A stretch of 64,000 nucleotides of DNA from an uncultured delta proteobacterium (GTDB lineage: Bacteria; Desulfobacterota; Binatia; Binatales; Binataceae): the NCBI GenBank assembly GCA_963743865.1, contig CAVURG010000006.1, forward strand, positions 2,689,638 through 2,753,637, in the 5' to 3' direction. Of this stretch, positions 2,708 through 47,416 are shown piece by piece (position 1 is the first letter of the stretch; each line of letters begins with the position of its first letter). Under the pieces are notes generated by a model. That model did no database searches, was not told where the DNA came from, and was given only the letters and a program-made list of their open reading frames with translations. A program made the position numbers and the translations under genes.

Positions 2708-3830
2708 ATGCCCTCAAACGAGCCGAGTCCGAATCGCCCACGAATCGAGCGATTGTGGCGGCGGGATCTTCCCGCTCCACTTCTTCCAATTTGGGCCGGG
2801 CTCGCGGTTGCGGCGGGATTCTACCGAGTCGGCGTGGCCGCACGTCATCTGTACTGGCGGATGATGAAACGGCGGGCGCCAGTGATGACGGTGAGCGTGG
2901 GCAATCTGACGGTCGGCGGAAACGGCAAGACGCCGTTCACGTTGTTTCTCGCCAAGCGCTTGCAGAGCCACGGCCTGCGCGTCGGAATCGTGAGCCGGGG
3001 CTACCGACGCGCGCGATCCAAAGTGCGCGCCGAGCTGGTGGCTGACGGCGGCACGTTGAAAATCTCAGCCGGAAGACGCGGGCGACGAGCCGGCGATGAT
3101 GGCGAAGTCGTTCGCCGGTCCGATTGCGGTTGCGCGCCGGCGCCTCGACGGCGTCGAGCTGCTAAGCAAGCTCGGTCCGCTCGACGCGGTGATCCTGGAC
3201 GACGGCTTTCAGCACGTGCGCTTGAATCGCGACGTGGATCTGGTGCTGGTGAGCAATGAGCGCGGCTTCGGCAACGGCTGGCTGCTGCCGGCCGGACCGA
3301 TGCGCGAGCCGATCCGCGCGGTCGGCCGCGCAGACGCGATTATAATGATGAACTTCGGAACTGCCGCGTCGGCAATTGGACCGTCGCAGATGAAGAAGCT
3401 TTCCGCGCGCAAAATACTTCACGCGTCGGTGCGGCCGCGCGCGTTGCTGGTCACCGAGAATGGGGTGTGGCGCGAAACCCCGCTGGGGCTGGGCGGACGG
3501 CGCGTGCTGGCGGTGAGCGGTCTGGCGGATTCAAGCGCGTTCTACGCGATGCTGCGCGAACTCGACGCGGACCTGGTCGGCGTTTTCGATTATCCGGACC
3601 ATCACGCCTACACGAACGCCGACTGGCAGGCTATGGTGAATGCGATGCGCGACACCGACCTGGTCGTCACGACCGAGAAGGACCTGGTCAAGCTGGAGCG
3701 GTTTCCGTTCCCGCGCGATTCGCTATACGCTCTCAGGCTTGAAGTAACGATGGATGCGGCCGATGCGCGCGCGCTCGACGAGTTGATACTGGGTCGCATG
3801 ACCGCAGCCTCGGCGGCGGCGGATGCATAG
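2708..3830 (+). CDS. lpxK: tetraacyldisaccharide 4'-kinase, broken by a +1 frameshift near 3060
   Basis: VGNLTVGGNGKTP P-loop in frame 2 (2708..3259). The rest of LpxK (DDGFQH, LLPAGPMREP) continues in frame 3 (3096..3830). The break is at ttgaaaatctca, an A4 run, so a homopolymer indel is likely. Confidence 0.75.
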
Positions 3831-3864
3831 CGAGAGGAAAGAAAATGCCCGGAGGATTTCCGCG

Positions 3865-4035
3865 ATGGCGCTGAGTCAGGAACTGCTCGACATCCTGGCG
3901 TGCCCGAAATGCAAGGGCGACCTGCATCTCAACGACAAGCAGGACGGCCTGGTCTGCAGCGCTTGCAGACTCGAGTATCCGGTGCGCGATGACATTCCGA
4001 TCATGCTGATCGAGGAAGCCAAACCGATCGCGTGA
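3865..4035 (+). CDS. Trm112/YcaR-like small protein (UPF0434)
   Basis: LDILACPKCKG...LVC..C motif. Classic position downstream of lpxK. Start taken at the internal Met of ORF 3823..4035. Confidence 0.6.
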   Translation: MALSQELLDILACPKCKGDLHLNDKQDGLVCSACRLEYPVRDDIPIMLIEEAKPIA

Positions 4036-5278: not shown

Positions 5279-6004
5279 ATGAAGTGGCGCTCCGATCCGA
5301 ACTTTTCGGCGTTCAAGATCGGCCGCCGAGAGCTCGTGATTCATCGCGATATCGCCCCTCACGCCGCGGAGATCGTGCAAAAGCTCGGCGAGCTTGCGTC
5401 CGCGTCGGAAGCGGGCGCGGGAAATCGCCAGAGCGCATTTCGGCTGAATCTCGCGGGCGGGCTCGAGCTGTTCGCGCGCCGGGGACGGCGTGGCGGAATG
5501 ATTGGATCGATCCTGAGCGACGTTTACGTGGGGATCACGCCGCGCCCGTTGAATGAACTCGCCGTGACGGTTGAAGCGATGCGGCGCGGAATCCCAGTGG
5601 CGGAGCCGATGGGCGCAATGATCGAATGGATCGGTCCCGCTCTCTATCGAGGATTTTTTCTGACTCGTGCGGTGCGCGGGATGACGCTATGGGAGTTCGT
5701 GAAGACGGACGACGATCCAATCGTTCGCCGCCACGTTCTCGGGCAGGCGCGCGCAGCGATCGACACGATGCACGACAAGGGGCTCTTTCACGCCGATCTC
5801 AATCTGCACAACATCCTGGTGACGCAAGCGCGCGAGAGTTTCACCGTGATTATTATCGACCTGGACAAGGCGCGGCTGTTCGATGGGCCGTTGCCGGCGG
5901 CGATGCGCCGGGCGAATGCGGCACGCTTGATACGGTCGGCGCGCAAGCTCGATCCGTCGGGGCAATATATCGACGCGTCCGCGCTGTCGATTCTGCAGGG
6001 GTGA
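5279..6004 (+). CDS. Kdo/WaaP-family lipopolysaccharide kinase (KdkA-like)
   Basis: FHADLNLHNILV catalytic motif and IIDLDKA; protein-kinase-like fold of PF06293. Confidence 0.65.
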   Translation: MKWRSDPNFSAFKIGRRELVIHRDIAPHAAEIVQKLGELASASEAGAGNRQSAFRLNLAGGLELFARRGRRGGMIGSILSDVYVGITPRPLNELAVTVEAMRRGIPVAEPMGAMIEWIGPALYRGFFLTRAVRGMTLWEFVKTDDDPIVRRHVLGQARAAIDTMHDKGLFHADLNLHNILVTQARESFTVIIIDLDKARLFDGPLPAAMRRANAARLIRSARKLDPSGQYIDASALSILQG

Positions 6005-14204: not shown

Positions 14205-14441
14205 TTATATGTGAAACCCACCGTGGGTTTGCAGGGGTGACCCCTGCACCCAGTGTTAAGGCCGCGCTCCGTTGTCGCGCGCGGCCCCTGCCAACGGCTT
14301 AATACTGCGCTGCCGTCGCCACGGCCAGGGGTGACCCCTGCACCCGGTAACGAATCGAAAAATCCGCGCGGCGCGTCTTTTTCTCTCGGGCGTAATACTG
14401 GCCAGCCGTGCGCCTAGTGAAAAGTGAGAAGAGAAGACGCG
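14205..14441. repeat. composite palindromic intergenic repeat, copy 2
   Basis: Modules: GTGAAACCCACCGTGGGTTT hairpin; CAGGGGTGACCCCTGCACCC twice; 14264-14297 is the exact reverse complement of 6129-6162; CGAAAAATCCGCGCGGCGCGTCTTTTTCTC; GTGAAAAGTGAAAAGAGAAGACGCG. Confidence 0.75.
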
Positions 14442-29778: not shown

Positions 29779-29979
29779 TCCTGTTCCCCACTAAATAATC
29801 AAGCGCATCCAGCCGTGGCGACCCTGCGGCGCAAGTGAGCGAGAGTGCCGCTTTGTGTCCGGGTTTTCTGGTGGGCCGTCGGAGACTCTAATTCAAGACC
29901 CGTGTTTGCGGCTGGTCGGCGCGGCGATTATGCTCCCTAACCAGCGGCGTGGGACTTTCGCACGGGGAGGTAAAGGGAC

Positions 29980-30300
29980 GTGAAGAAAAGCAGGATCGTC
30001 CTTTGCGGCCTCGCGCTGGCCGGTTGTCTGTGGGCTGGCTCGGCCAAGGCACAGGATCAACCACCAGCGTACATGAATCCAATTCCCAACGGTGGTTATA
30101 TGGTCACGCAACCCGGCGCGCGGCCCTACCAGCCACCGATCTACGTCAAGCCAATACCGAACGGCGGATACATGGTCACGCAACCCGGTGCTCAGCCATA
30201 TGAACCGCCCACGTATATCAGACCCATTCCCGGCGGCGCATTTCAGCCGGGTGTTCCTGGCAGGCGCACGTTTGATCTCCCCGAGGGCGGAGACCACTAA
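29980..30300 (+). CDS. small secreted protein with tandem P/G/Y-rich repeats (PIPNGGYMVTQPGA units)
   Basis: GTG start after GGGGAGG; signal peptide MKKSRIVLCGLALAGCLWAGSAKAQ; 72-bp DNA tandem repeat at 30061..30270 (about 2.9 copies). Confidence 0.6.
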   Translation: MKKSRIVLCGLALAGCLWAGSAKAQDQPPAYMNPIPNGGYMVTQPGARPYQPPIYVKPIPNGGYMVTQPGAQPYEPPTYIRPIPGGAFQPGVPGRRTFDLPEGGDH

Positions 30301-30315
30301 TCACCCGGTTCGACT

Positions 30316-30621
30316 ATGAGCATCCGCCATGCTGCCGCGCTTGCGGTTGTGGGCTGGTATCTGATGCTGGCGCCCAAAACGTTAGACACACCGCTTGCGT
30401 TTGACGAAAGCGCACCATTGAGCAAATGGAGCATCGTCGGCTCCTATGACTCGGCGAGTGATTGCAACGAGGGCAGGAACTATATTCCAAAGGGTTTGTT
30501 GCAACTAGCTAATGGTGAATCTGACGAGGGCAAGAAGAACCAGCTTACGCAGCAGGCGGTTAGCCTCGCAGGAGCTTACCTGTGCATCGCGACCGACGAT
30601 CCGCGCCTCAAGGGGAAGTAA
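30316..30621 (+). CDS. small protein A1 with N-terminal hydrophobic segment, two Cys and a C-terminal CIATDDPRLKGK motif
   Basis: 101 aa; paralog of 30851..31228 (shared RHAAALAxVGWYL N-terminus, W.I..SYD....C..R, LCIATDDPRLKG). Confidence 0.55.
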   Translation: MSIRHAAALAVVGWYLMLAPKTLDTPLAFDESAPLSKWSIVGSYDSASDCNEGRNYIPKGLLQLANGESDEGKKNQLTQQAVSLAGAYLCIATDDPRLKGK

Positions 30622-30623
30622 CG

Positions 30624-30854
30624 ATGGGAGACAAAATTAATTGCGTAGTCGTCAACAAACGACCGGTGGGGCCGCTGATATTCGGCGCAATAAAGGACGC
30701 TCTCTCGGACGCCAAAATCCGATTCACTCATGATTCTCTTGAGGATGCATTCCTGTTCTTCATCAGTGCCGATTACTTCCCGAAGGCGCGCGCAGTTTTC
30801 GACAAACTGAAGAACGATGGCAAAATTGATAATTTCGAGGTCAAGGAGAAGTGA
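30624..30854 (+). CDS. small cytoplasmic-type protein B (77 aa), unknown function
   Basis: Internal Met of ORF 30582..30854, placed 2 nt after the A1 stop, with a 4-nt overlap onto A2. Confidence 0.45.
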   Translation: MGDKINCVVVNKRPVGPLIFGAIKDALSDAKIRFTHDSLEDAFLFFISADYFPKARAVFDKLKNDGKIDNFEVKEK

Positions 30855-31228
30855 TCCCCCGTCATGCAGCCGCGCTCGCGCTTGTGGGCTGGTATCTGAT
30901 TGTGCCGCCGCGAGGGATCAAATCGAATGGGGTGCTGCTCCAGCCCGACATAAAGAGGCTGGAAGAAGCCATCCAGAACGGTACCGCTGAGGTAGCCCCC
31001 GATCCAACACAGCCTTACTCAGATTGGAAGATTATGTCGTCGTACGATACCGGGGGGCAGTGCGAGCAAGAGAGGAGCAAGTACCATAAGATTGCGACTT
31101 ACGCGAAGGAGAGGGAATATCGCGATGCGAAAGGCCAACCTCTCTCGGATCAGATCAAGATTTCTACCGAGCAATACGAGTTTGCGCTTTGCATCGCGAC
31201 CGACGATCCGCGCCTAAAAGGAGACTAA
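30851..31228 (+). CDS. small protein A2, paralog of A1
   Basis: 125 aa; same N-terminal segment and the C-terminal FALCIATDDPRLKGD. Confidence 0.55.
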   Translation: MIPRHAAALALVGWYLIVPPRGIKSNGVLLQPDIKRLEEAIQNGTAEVAPDPTQPYSDWKIMSSYDTGGQCEQERSKYHKIATYAKEREYRDAKGQPLSDQIKISTEQYEFALCIATDDPRLKGD

Positions 31229-31232
31229 TACC

Positions 31233-31460
31233 ATGGGAGCCTGTAAAATATGTGAAAGGCCGAAAGCGGATGTTTGCCTGCGTGATTACGATGGACCCGG
31301 GGAGGCGTACGCAGGCGGAAAGGCAACTGGTCCCGTCACTGGACAACTAGAAACCTGCGATGACTGCCACAAGGATATCGAGGATTCTTGCCGCCCAAAG
31401 CATAACACCGCCGCTAGCAAGAAAAACGACTTGCTTTTGACGCGTCCCGGTCGCCCTTAA
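31233..31460 (+). CDS. small Cys-rich protein (6 Cys: CKIC..C..CDDC..C), zinc-ribbon-like
   Basis: 75-aa ORF lying 4 nt after the A2 stop. Confidence 0.45.
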   Translation: MGACKICERPKADVCLRDYDGPGEAYAGGKATGPVTGQLETCDDCHKDIEDSCRPKHNTAASKKNDLLLTRPGRP

Positions 31461-31620
31461 CTAGGGCCGCCCGCCCCCGCCCCCGCCACCGCCTTCTCGT
31501 GCGCCATCATCTGACCCGATTGTCGCATCCAGCTCAGGCTAATATGGGGCCCCCGGCTCTTTCCCCCCTAACCCGTTCTAACAGGCCGTCAGGCCGCATC
31601 TATTCTTATTTCCTCGCTAA

Positions 31621-31756
31621 GGTGCAGGGGTTACCCCTGGCCGTGGCGACGGCAGCGCAGTATTAAGCAGTTGGCAGGGGCCGCGCCCGCCAACGGCGGG
31701 CGGCCTTAATACTGGGTGCAGAGGGGTCGCCCCTGCAAATCCACGGTGGGTTTCAC
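31621..31756. repeat. composite palindromic intergenic repeat, copy 3 (inverted relative to copy 2)
   Basis: About 90% identical to the reverse complement of 14221-14340, with compensatory stem changes (CCGCCCGCC AAC GGCGGGCGG). Ends CCACGGTGGGTTTCAC. Confidence 0.75.
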
Positions 31757-31770
31757 TAGAATCGTGCGCT

Positions 31771-44714: not shown

Positions 44715-45035
44715 TGCGGAACCCACCGTGATTGAATGTGAAACCCTGCGCGGGTTTCACCCTTCCGCGGCAGGGCTGAGCCCTGCACCCGGTAACGAAT
44801 CGAAAAATCCGCGCGGCGCGTCTTTTTCTCCCGGGCGTAATACTGGCCAGCCGTGCCAACGGGCAGGGGCTGCGGCCCCTGCATCCGCATTGAGAAGACG
44901 CGAAAATCTGCGCAGCGCATCTTTTCGCGACTACGCGACGACAGGGGCGACCGCAGGGGCGACCTCCTTCGGCTTCGCTCAGGACGGGCTCTGCACCCAG
45001 TGAAAAGTGAAAAGAGAAGATGCGGGCTTCGCCCT
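44715..45035. repeat. composite palindromic intergenic repeat, copy 4
   Basis: GTGAAACCCTGCGCGGGTTTCAC hairpin; GGTAACGAATCGAAAAATCCGCGCGGCGCGTCTTTTTCTCCCGGGCGTAATACTGGCCAGCCGTG near-identical to 14345-14410; GGGCAGGGGCTGCGGCCCCTGCA module shared with copy 1; GTGAAAAGTGAAAAGAGAAGATGCG. Confidence 0.75.
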
Positions 45036-45214
45036 GTTAGAAGGGTAAGGGGGAAAAGGGGCTGCTGCCCGCCGGCACAGTAGTGATAATCAAGCCTCGA
45101 TGGCGCGCGGAGCCGGCCACCACGAATTGGTGGACTCTGCGCTGGAATCGACCGGCGCCGACACAATCTTCAGCGGTTGCGTCTGAGCGGTATGGCCGCG
45201 AAGCTCCACTTCTT

Positions 45215-46210
45215 TCAAAAGAGCGATGTCTGTAACGCGAGTGGGGCCGGTTCTGCCAGCCGATCCGGCAAGCGCGCCAATTCACCCTCGAATCGAAACT
45301 TGCTCGCCTCGAGGTAGGGCGAGTGGTTCTCGATGGCTATCCATTTGCGGCCTTCGCGTTCACAAGCCTCTCCCGTCGTGTTGCTTCCGGCAAAAGGGTC
45401 AAGAACCAAATCGCCAGAGTCGGTAAGGAATCGAATGAAGAAAGCCGGTACCTGAACAGGGAAGCGAGCCGGATGAGGCTTGATATTGTTCTGCTTGCAC
45501 AGTTCAAGATAGCGCCCGTTGGCGTCGTTGTTGCCATGCACCAGAAGATTCGAAGGAATGGAACCGCCGCGATCGGTAAATTTCTTCGTAATGATATGTC
45601 CAGACGGACGCACCTTCGCTTTGTATCCGCGTTTCACCAGCCGTCGCATGTCTGGGCTGTATTCATTTAGCACACGCTGATTGTCTGCCTTGGGGTCGGG
45701 CGTCTTTGACAACCACCAAAGACAGTTGACTGCGTCCTTCATCCGGATCTTTCGGACCGTTACCCATTCAGCAGGTGAAGGAAGCTTCGCAGGATTGTAC
45801 CAATAGAATTCTTGCGCCAGGTAAAAGCCGACCTCCCGAACGAGAGCAATCAGCAAATCGAAATGATACAAGGAGCGGGTCGGCTTACCGGGTGTCCACG
45901 CACCGCCAATGTCGATCACAAAACTGCCGTTGTCCCGCAAGAGGCGGCGTACTTCGCGCGCAAACGGCAGAAACCATTCCACATAGTCTCGCTGATTGGC
46001 GTTGCCGTATTCCTTCTTGAAGTGAAGTGCGTAGGGCGGGGAGGTGAAAGCGAGATTCACGCTCCCGGCCTCAAGCCCCGCCATGAACGGTAGGGAATTC
46101 GCTACGTAGGCACGACCCAGCTTTGTTTCGTAAAGCGGTTTCGCCGGCAACTGCGGGTCGCCGGAGTGCCCGTTACTTAACCGCGTCCTTGAAGGCATCG
46201 AGCAAATCAT
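45215..46210 (-). CDS. type II DNA methyltransferase (beta-class amino-MTase; N4-cytosine or N6-adenine)
   Basis: Motif IV TSPPY precedes motif I ([14 protein letters not shown]), the beta-class order IV..I. About 330 aa. Confidence 0.75.
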
Positions 46211-46721
46211 AGCTCCAAAAGCCTTCCGGTTGGAGCGGAACGGGCTGCATGATCGTAAGAAATTGGGCTAGCGGCTTGGGTCGTCTAGTGAGGCGGCGGG
46301 TTGCCACAAAAAGGTATTCCCACTTCCCAGTGAAATTGAAGAGACAAGCGGCGAGCACGTCGAATTCCTCCGGCTTGTAGCCGCGTGTGGGCTCGCCTTT
46401 CTTGTTGTTGCGGGTCTTCTGGAGTTCGACGCGCGCCGATTCCTGCGGACGTTTAGTTTGGCTCGGCGAACGGACGTTCTTGCACTCGATCTTAATTTCC
46501 CGACCTGCATAGGGCACGAGGAAATCTGGTTGGCCGTCCTTGTCTTGCCAGATGACGTTTTGGAGAGCACCTTCCCGTTGCATTTGTTCGAGCTTCTGAA
46601 AGAGAAACCACTCGGCAAGCTTGCCTTTCACGTCCACCTGTGCACGAAACCCGCGCTCTATGGCGGACAGAATATCCGATGCTGTGGTATTCCATTTCTC
46701 TTCGAGCGGATGCTTCTTCAT
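46173..46721 (-). CDS. type II restriction endonuclease candidate (PD-(D/E)xK)
   Basis: PDFLV...EIKIECK core, 182 aa, 38-nt overlap with the MTase. Lies between the C gene and the MTase. Confidence 0.55.
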
Positions 46722-46951
46722 CTCGCACCGCGCTCGGGAAAAAGCTCGCGCACCGCGATGCCAAGTGCCTGTGCGAGGTCGCTGATAACGCGGAGAGTGG
46801 GATTCCTCTCACCACGCTCAATACCGCCGACGTAGGTCCAGTGCCGCCCGCATTTGACGGCGAGCTCTTCCTGGGTCCAACCTCGCTGTTCGCGAAGCTC
46901 GCGAACGCGTCGGCCGAATGCGATAGAGGGCGACGCCACAACCGCATACAA
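46718..46951 (-). CDS. XRE-family HTH controller (C) protein
   Basis: 77 aa; HTH WTQEELAVKCGRHWTYVGGIERGER; ATGA overlap onto the endonuclease gene. Confidence 0.7.
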   Translation of the reverse strand: MYAVVASPSIAFGRRVRELREQRGWTQEELAVKCGRHWTYVGGIERGERNPTLRVISDLAQALGIAVRELFPERGAR

Positions 46952-47124
46952 GCCGGAATGAAGACGATGTTTCTAGAGACTATAAGTATTGTGCGCTGAG
47001 AAATCCCACCCGACCTGAAAGATGCGAAGGCACTGCTGGACGAATTGAACGAGGGCTAGATTTTCGCGGGCATCTCGAAGCGGGACATATCGATTCAGAT
47101 TGGCCTGCGTGACTGCGCGCGCCG

Positions 47125-47390
47125 CCAGGGTTTGCAGGAGTGACCCCTGGCAGGGGACGCCCCTGCACCCACCGTTAATCGAAAAATCCGCAGGATGCGT
47201 CTTTTTCTCCCACGGCCGAGAGCGAGAGACGCGGTTGCCGCGTATCTCGCGCTTACCGTGCGCCCCCGTCGCAACGGGCGCCCACCGCGCAGGTGATTCT
47301 TCCTTCATGCGGCCGCCAACGGCGGGCGCGGCACCCTGCCAACGGCTTAATACTGCGCTGCCGTCGCCACGGCCGGGGGAAACTTGACAG
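47125..47390. repeat. composite palindromic intergenic repeat, copy 5
   Basis: GGGTTTGCAGGAGTGACCCCTGGCAGGGGACGCCCCTGCACCC; CGAAAAATCCGCAGGATGCGTCTTTTTCTCCC; CCCACCGCGCAGGTGATTCTTCC (reverse complement of 6020-6042); GCCAACGGCTTAATACTGCGCTGCCGTCGCCACGGCC identical to 14302-14338. Confidence 0.75.
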
Positions 47391-47416
47391 GTTGGGAAGG
47401 CCGCGCGTAGGCTCCC

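Follow-up and report, generated by a model that had tools for sequence, protein, structure and literature searches.

The 64,000-nucleotide (nt) window considered here, a stretch of contig CAVURG010000006.1 from an uncultured member of the Binataceae, contains an islet of five small genes, designated R, A1, B, A2, and C. A1 and A2 belong to the A family, a previously undescribed, lineage-specific multigene family of uncultured Binataceae, in which both ends of the gene are conserved at synonymous sites and the middles occur as mosaic tracts. All five open reading frames (ORFs) lie on the + strand: R at 29980-30300 (106 amino acids, aa), A1 at 30316-30621 (101 aa), B between the two A genes at 30624-30854 (76 aa), A2 at 30851-31228 (125 aa), and C at 31233-31460 (75 aa). 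A2 begins with a GTG start codon that overlaps the stop codon of B by 4 nt, and the intergenic spacings in order are 15, 2, -4, and 4 nt. These positions and spacings agree with the first-pass annotation, a reading of the letters made without database searches, which described five tightly packed genes; tight spacing and translational coupling extend across the block.

The islet is also the low-GC island described by that annotation, as sliding-window GC content confirms, but the 65-70% given for its surroundings is slightly too high, the window mean being 63.2% (standard deviation 2.5% for 1150-nt windows). GC content is 55.3% at 29980-31460 and 53.8% at 30316-31460, a contrast of about 3.7 standard deviations, and no stretch of the window has a lower GC content, although 45200-47400 equals it. 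Local GC over 60 nt ranges from 42% to 70%. Much of the drop is at codon position 2, i.e., in amino-acid composition (GC content at this position is 0.30 in B); at the third codon position (GC3) the islet genes have 0.53-0.66 vs. 0.70-0.79 in neighboring genes. Searches of Pfam, NCBIfam, PADLOC, and PHROGs gave no match for any of the five proteins, in line with the annotation's statement that it recognized no family. An Rfam search of the window gave no match, and promoter and terminator scans were uninformative.

An accessory insertion between fmdB and ADH

As a small accessory insertion, the block occupies a hot spot of variable cargo between fmdB and the gene for a zinc alcohol dehydrogenase (ADH). 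The inserted segment, 29831-31758, lies between the terminator stem of fmdB and the start region of ADH; homology to the empty sites of loci L092 and L106, determined by blastn and alignment, ends at 29830 and resumes at 31759-31770. When metagenomes were scanned with the ADH protein, 80 loci were obtained, 47 of which had enough upstream sequence to judge. In 37 of these 47 orthologous proC-yggU-fmdB-ADH loci (ADH 80-93% identical at the amino-acid level) fmdB and ADH are adjacent, which identifies the five-gene block as an insertion; the start-to-start distance of fmdB and ADH is 459-483 nt in the 37 empty loci, with only the fmdB terminator in between, vs. 2382 nt in the window. The flanks consist of housekeeping genes: lytic transglycosylase, maf, yggS, proC, yggU, and fmdB upstream, and ADH and hydantoinase A/B downstream.

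At the same site relatives carry other cargo: a Gp49-type toxin with a helix-turn-helix (HTH) antitoxin in L096, L098, and L103, that HTH antitoxin also in L099 and L101, a GNAT acetyltransferase in L126, and an FRG-domain gene together with an A-family gene in L153. The suggestion of a horizontally acquired module is upheld by this variable cargo and by the absence of the insertion from the 37 loci; the islet itself is routine hot-spot cargo. Further insertions are found between yggU and fmdB in L120, L121, L131, L138, L139, and L152.

The window contains no tRNA, the genes flanking the islet include no integrase, and a clean target-site duplication was not found at the islet ends. The sole candidate for an attachment (att) site, a 10-nt direct repeat with copies at 29804 and 31524 (CGCATCCAGC), is of uncertain meaning.

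The A family and the ends of its genes

A1 and A2 are paralogs, as the first-pass annotation proposed (35% identity, E=8e-21), and share an N-terminal RHAAALA(L/V)VGWYL and a C-terminal CIATDDPRLKG. At E<=0.01 a search with A2 retrieved at least 618 protein clusters, every one 84-153 aa long and without a Pfam domain; the sole named record among them is from Candidatus Binataceae. A scan of species-representative genomes yielded 300 confirmed A loci, of which 80 were kept, all of them from Binataceae, Binatus, or metagenome-assembled genomes (MAGs) labelled only as (delta)proteobacterial, with up to four A loci per genome. Two to four A copies are present in 24 of 81 loci, mostly in the same orientation and abutting (1-30 nt apart).

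The alignment of the family begins with a near-invariant N-terminus, M-x-x-RHAAALALVGWYLMxPP, followed by a conserved P-x-x-x-W...D-x-A-x-x-C element; between this element and a near-invariant C-terminus, C-I-A-T-DDPRLK-x-x, the middle differs among members in both sequence and length. A lysine near the end is near-invariant; the C-terminal residue itself is not conserved. Pfam searches with 118 aligned members gave two chance-level hits only and no curated family, the PDB holds no match, and in the literature no mention of the A motif was found, papers on Binatota containing no description of such a family. AlphaFold2 models A1 with a mean predicted local distance difference test (pLDDT) score of 89.7, placing strands at residues 14-18, 39-44, and 88-92 and helices at 47-67 and 71-87; the model predicts with confidence a small folded domain of about 80 residues that has no solved relative. 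For A middles the ratio of nonsynonymous to synonymous divergence (dN/dS) is 0.07-0.59 (0.45-0.48 for the A2 middle), and this purifying selection shows that A genes are functional. A start codon is present in at least 79% of copies, with a purine-rich ribosome-binding region.

Conservation at the nucleotide level was analyzed in 77 distinct A genes against a background of 76,000 codons. It extends from the start codon to nt 58 and again from about 39 nt before the stop codon to the stop codon; upstream of the start only a purine-rich ribosome-binding signal is conserved. In the islet, on the + strand, the 5' block of A1 lies at 30316-30373 (codons 1-20, with 83% nucleotide identity to the A2 block) and that of A2 at 30851-30908. 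The 3' blocks are at 30583-30621 in A1 (CIATDDPRLKGK plus the stop codon) and at 31190-31228 in A2. The terminal codons of A genes, AAG GAG AAG, double as the Shine-Dalgarno sequence of the next gene: here the last codons of A1 serve B, and an AAAGGAG within the A2 block serves C.

Within the blocks particular codons are favored at particular positions. In the 5' block Ala7 is GCC in 83% of genes, Ala8 GCG in 95%, and Leu9 CTC in 92%, while Leu11 is CTT in 67% vs. 13% of the background and Tyr15 TAT in 83% vs. 36%; in the 3' block the two aspartates are encoded by GAC (87%) and then GAT (88%). Codon diversity is far below expectation at codons 3-19 and in T-D-D-P-R-L (ACC GAC GAT CCG CGC CTC). 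At C50, A47, E51, F44, and the C-terminal C-I-A, observed diversity equals that expected, the synonymous sites being saturated. Equally conserved residues of the middle therefore act as an internal control, which shows that the blocks are subject to constraint or homogenization at the nucleotide level. RNA structure was tried as the cause and rejected: the consensus blocks fold no better than shuffled sequences (z 0.3 and 0.9), and pairing between 5' and 3' blocks is weaker than when shuffled. The distribution of distances between blocks is overdispersed, near-identical pairs being merely consensus-like sequences. The antisense strand of the 5' block can be read as an ORF (...IRYQPT(S/T)ASAAAWR...), at 30297-30434 and 30862-30972 on the minus strand of the window and at 48 other loci; this "family," the second largest in clustering, is an artefact that ORF callers could mistake for a gene.

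The tract 30583-30909, which comprises the 3' block of A1, gene B, and the 5' block of A2, is 95.7% identical to L087, with sharp edges at the outer limits of the blocks, and the A middles that flank it are unrelated between the two genomes. In L087 the tract belongs to a prophage-like region with genes for terminase, primase, DUF4145, and DUF4760 proteins. The closest relatives of A2, in L085 and L086, are 82-86% identical at the nucleotide level, with similarity confined to the gene and unrelated flanks. At least ten further gene pairs have middles that are 72-95% identical in unrelated contexts, and only one pair is syntenic. Two loci of the same genome, L046 and L049, share a 96% identical tract from about codon 9 to the C-terminal cysteine codon, outside which the outer parts of the blocks and the flanks differ. 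Within pairs of this kind, divergence is often greater in the blocks than in the middle (proportion of synonymous differences, pS, 0.51 vs. 0.18 and 0.49 vs. 0.23). Isolated 3' or 5' blocks are also found directly beside complete A genes (L038 at about 3970, L055 at about 3969, and L050 at 3032 and 6067); these may be scars of recombination or deletion. Frameshift errors may account for many of the other A ORFs that are split in long-read MAGs.

Surface protein families that recombine through conserved ends include those encoded by babA/babB and other Hop genes of Helicobacter pylori, msp2 of Anaplasma, pilE/pilS of Neisseria, and vlsE of Borrelia. As in those families, the 5' and 3' coding ends of A genes are conserved at the nucleotide level around a variable center, tracts end inside the conserved parts, and the same variable segment occurs at different loci. 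A proteins differ from them in measuring only about 100 aa and are related to them neither in sequence nor in fold. In place of one expression site served by silent cassettes, all A copies look like complete genes, each having a start codon and a ribosome-binding site; exchange is observed between genomes and a phage, not as a program within one cell, and surface exposure of A is only putative.

Two other devices that move or diversify genes were considered and rejected. An integron cassette is contradicted by the lack of an inverted repeat after the genes and by conservation that stops at the stop codons; IntI was not searched for window-wide. Diversity-generating retroelements are marked by a template repeat copy, a nearby reverse transcriptase, and substitutions at adenines only. 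The window holds no second copy of the variable parts of A1 or A2, though no search was aimed at a reverse transcriptase, and A middles differ by insertions and deletions and at 60-75% of residues, which counts against adenine substitution of the retroelement type.

R, B, C, and the surroundings of A genes

R has the signal peptide and tandem repeat that the first-pass annotation attributed to it. The signal peptide ends in AKA, cleavage falling before Q, and is followed by about three repeats, PPxY(I/V)xPxPNGGY(M/I)VTQPGAxPYQ; a 72-nt tandem repeat is found at 30058-30201. Relatives of R make up 55 representative clusters at E<=1e-3 with the same architecture of signal peptide and two to three repeats (consensus PPTY(I/V)NPxPNGGY(I/V)xTQPGAxPYQ). 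R is proline-rich, and the islet copy has a LAGC lipobox-like motif, whereas the lipobox cysteine is generally absent from the family. By its sequence R belongs to a modest family of predicted small secreted repeat proteins. Among the fetched loci a single relative of R, in L036, stands beside A genes.

B has only one relative, 96% identical, in L087. The predicted B protein is of cytoplasmic type, with an ACT/ferredoxin-like beta-alpha-beta-beta-alpha-beta fold in a model built from a two-sequence alignment; identity to ACT/ferredoxin-like domains is 11-14%, and Pfam gives no ACT match. Since this fold is very common, it implies no function for B. C matches only itself among 5.8 billion proteins searched, and the fetched loci contain nothing related to it in DNA or protein. 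It has a good Shine-Dalgarno sequence, a GC3 of only 0.53, and a CxxC...CxxC arrangement that looks like a zinc ribbon; its status as a real gene is uncertain.

The first-pass annotation saw in A1-B and A2-C two cassettes, each an A protein with a small partner, and suggested effector/immunity pairs, bacteriocin-like peptides, or a signaling system. Such cassettes, including ones of the toxin/antitoxin type, would suit the tight spacing and translational coupling of the block, and B recurs between two A genes in the second genome, L087. The neighborhoods of other A genes contradict this reading. Neither B nor C has relatives beside about 130 other A genes, C is a pure orphan, and tandem A genes elsewhere abut without a partner between them. 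All-vs-all clustering of 3906 ORFs from A loci revealed no recurring neighbor family, and in a Pfam census of 149 immediate neighbors, which are ribosomal proteins, PlsX, DnaE, GcvP, and similar proteins, no family appears more than twice. The islet proteins lack any toxin, antitoxin, or defense domain in Pfam, NCBIfam, or PADLOC; traits of class II bacteriocins or of ribosomally synthesized and post-translationally modified peptides (RiPPs) were not found at the locus, there being no double-glycine leader and, in the flanking genes, no transporter, peptidase, or modifying enzyme. The modeled A protein is a folded domain rather than a peptide precursor. The paired-cassette reading is largely refuted and very improbable, and no positive evidence was found for effector/immunity pairs or a signaling system; R, B, and C are best regarded as passengers of the islet, not partners of A.

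The last ~240 nt of the insertion, 31517-31758, are a palindromic element resembling repetitive extragenic palindromic (REP) sequences, separate from the five genes; the repeat that the annotation placed 3' of the block is indeed there, at 31620-31740. The element is independent of the genes because a homologous element (75-78% identity) stands alone at the fmdB-ADH site in L097, and the 3' palindromic element of the islet is also found in L099, L101, and L047. The repeat family, which is REP-like or like miniature inverted-repeat transposable elements (MITEs), has copies in the window at 14231-14341, 31517-31758, 44770-44786, and 47134-47166, and its core, GCAGGGGT(T/G/C)ACCCCTG, has 13 matches in the window vs. 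0.17 expected. Copies of this repeat (44770; 47134-47166) flank a second low-GC islet at 45215-46951 (about 53-55% GC), which contains ORFs for a 331-aa DNA methyltransferase that has an SPPY motif, for a restriction-endonuclease-like protein of 182 aa, and for an HTH controller-like protein of 77 aa and, to judge from these ORFs, looks like a restriction-modification system.

Probable export, proposed recombination handles, and possible function

A proteins are probably exported. The N-terminus has a basic start, M-K-P-R-H, and then 13 hydrophobic residues (Kyte-Doolittle mean 2.0), which would suit the core of a signal peptide; the position of this stretch is fixed at the very N-terminus in 169 of 191 A members. 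The number of cysteines is exactly two in 158 of the 191, four in 16, and three in 14, so that 174 members have two or four; under a Poisson background, zero, one, and two extra cysteines would be expected in 70, 70, and 35 members, and 158, 14, and 16 are observed. Few extra cysteines and a bias toward even numbers are a known signature of exported, disulfide-bonded proteins, and we infer one stabilizing disulfide bond in A proteins. A 230-aa variant in L087 (9306-9998) has its N-terminal block split by a hydrophobic insert (MNPRHAAALALVG-CFLTASLVSAGTALAG-GWYLMEPP), which gives it a longer, conventional-looking signal with a lipobox-like LVGC and, just before GWYLM, an ALA site followed by G; this site hints that the mature protein starts near GWYLM.

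A genes are lower in GC than their own locus in 86% of cases, and GC3 is 0.59 for A middles vs. 0.73 for long ORFs. One A gene is found in the contig of a T7-like phage, between the helicase and small terminase subunit genes of the replication and packaging modules; others are in a prophage-like element and beside a conjugative type IV secretion system. Cultured phages and plasmids gave no A relative.

Two small ORFs stand upstream of the phage A gene. Family U (68-136 aa, motif TGEINPL..L.E.LP.SGEW.R...D.W.R.F..T..KL.K.K) has an ATGA overlap with the A start in one phage and three chromosomal loci, with copies at L091 4332-4538, L026 3594-4004, L067 ~3762-3998, and L001 ~5768-6001, the last with an in-frame stop; it has no match in Pfam and is missing from the window and from most A loci. 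In the phage, U and A are directly preceded by a 98-aa ORF (L091 4054-4350, equivalent to L090 2143-2439) with an A-like layout: an N-terminal hydrophobic segment, SYYLV, F-x-x-x-x-S-C, and a C-terminal LCVPSR with the second cysteine. Its similarity to A is not significant (hhalign probability 2.5%), and the ORF may be a distant analogue of A.

The phage-borne copy raises the possibility that A is a component of phage lysis or exclusion, its chromosomal copies being prophage remnants. Rz-type i-spanins have an N-terminal anchor, a helical periplasmic domain, and cysteines, an architecture that the predicted A protein resembles; the phage gene lies just upstream of the small terminase subunit, and the proline-rich R with its lipobox-like motif could be added to the comparison. 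That motif is not general in the R family, R is not linked to A, a hydrophobic stretch of 13 residues is short for an anchor, no endolysin or holin was recognized beside the phage copy, and genomes carry several A copies among housekeeping genes without other phage genes. A spanin-like role is accordingly given very little credence.

The account that we favor, with confidence evenly balanced, is of an accessory islet with an exported A family whose gene ends serve as recombination handles. The invariant terminal blocks and the W...D-x-A-x-x-C element of these ~100-aa proteins would form a small beta-sheet base, from which a helical hairpin of variable length and sequence projects. The same two blocks would act both as protein core and as DNA homology arms; breakpoints inside them would move variable middles between loci, genomes, and phages, and recombination could also move DNA lying between tandem A copies, here the orphan gene B. 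The variable hairpin may be a recognition surface in conflict between phages or mobile elements and their hosts, for example in exclusion or immunity.

A role as a variable envelope or periplasmic protein in such conflict is put forward tentatively; it is a guess, because few A genes lie beside mobile or defense genes and only two viral contigs carry one. Small envelope proteins for exclusion, the lipoproteins of the Cor, Llp, TraT, TrbK, and Ltp types, are known from phages and mobile elements. Like these, A proteins are small, predicted to be N-terminally targeted, highly variable, and carried as accessory cargo on phage and conjugative elements; unlike these, they have no lipobox or homology, and most copies are outside recognizable mobile elements. 

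The tandem arrays of divergent A paralogs bring to mind the arrays of orphan immunity genes that polymorphic toxin systems carry. A proteins might be a repertoire of periplasmic inhibitors directed at the envelope-acting toxins of neighbors (polymorphic, type VI, or contact-dependent), with divergent paralogs collected in arrays and the variable hairpin matched to variable toxins. The location of arrays in variable regions, the accessory and hot-spot sites shared with toxin-antitoxin and FRG cargo, the likely periplasmic location, and the exchange of A between genomes would all suit such a repertoire. Unlike known arrays, A genes have no neighboring toxin genes (no toxin, Rhs, CdiA, or type VI gene among the 149 neighbors or the all-vs-all clusters), all copies are from one family with DNA-conserved termini, and there is no PADLOC match or match to a Pfam immunity family; we regard this role as unlikely.

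Several A copies are present in apparently most Binataceae genomes, mostly among housekeeping genes, a distribution that would fit a lineage-specific structural protein of the envelope, such as a periplasmic tether or an abundant small protein. The base and the DDPRLK tail would then bind a conserved envelope component, with the middle free of constraint and the blocks serving as signals for translation or export; the invariant termini, the near-invariant lysine, and the purifying selection on A agree with this. Such a protein is quite improbable given that A is absent at orthologous sites of close relatives, moves between unrelated contexts, is phage-borne, and is consistently lower in GC and GC3 than the host, and given that the C-terminal residue varies.

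Several observations weigh against an exported family with recombination handles. The hydrophobic stretch of A ends in PP and then in variable sequence, with no conserved AxA site for signal peptidase I, and its 13 residues do not suffice to anchor a protein in a membrane. In the AlphaFold2 model it forms strand 1 of the sheet (pLDDT 94), a placement incompatible with the same stretch being a cleaved signal. Most A genes stand among housekeeping genes with no adjacent mobile-element or defense gene, and only 2 of 2.9 million viral contigs contain them. Intragenomic conversion was rejected as the reason why the blocks are conserved: their divergence is 0.194 within and 0.193 between genomes, and gene conversion within genomes is therefore insufficient on its own. 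Part of the conservation could come from selection for translation or export acting on the 5' coding region, and many of the source MAGs are long-read assemblies with likely frameshift errors.

A bolder form of the recombination-handle account, which we consider doubtful, holds that the terminal blocks are a dedicated, selected device for shuffling DNA, the junction of a 3' and a 5' block (~100 nt) being a portable recombination site. Binataceae and their phages would by this means reassort the middles of envelope proteins and occasionally capture foreign genes such as B. If true, an uncultured phylum would possess a system for diversification at the scale of genes, based on a protein fold that has no known relative.

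The A family numbers hundreds of members but is missing from all curated libraries; its fold, predicted with confidence, has no solved relative, and its proteins probably reside in the envelope. Its invariant ends, conserved at synonymous sites, and its saturated middle provide an internal control by which constraint on protein can be separated from constraint on DNA. If the blocks are recombination handles, the strategy of conserved ends and a variable center known from antigenic variation would have an example in free-living bacteria that are not pathogens. Binataceae are abundant and uncultured in soils and peat, and A genes would then offer a handle on phage-host interactions in an uncultured phylum.

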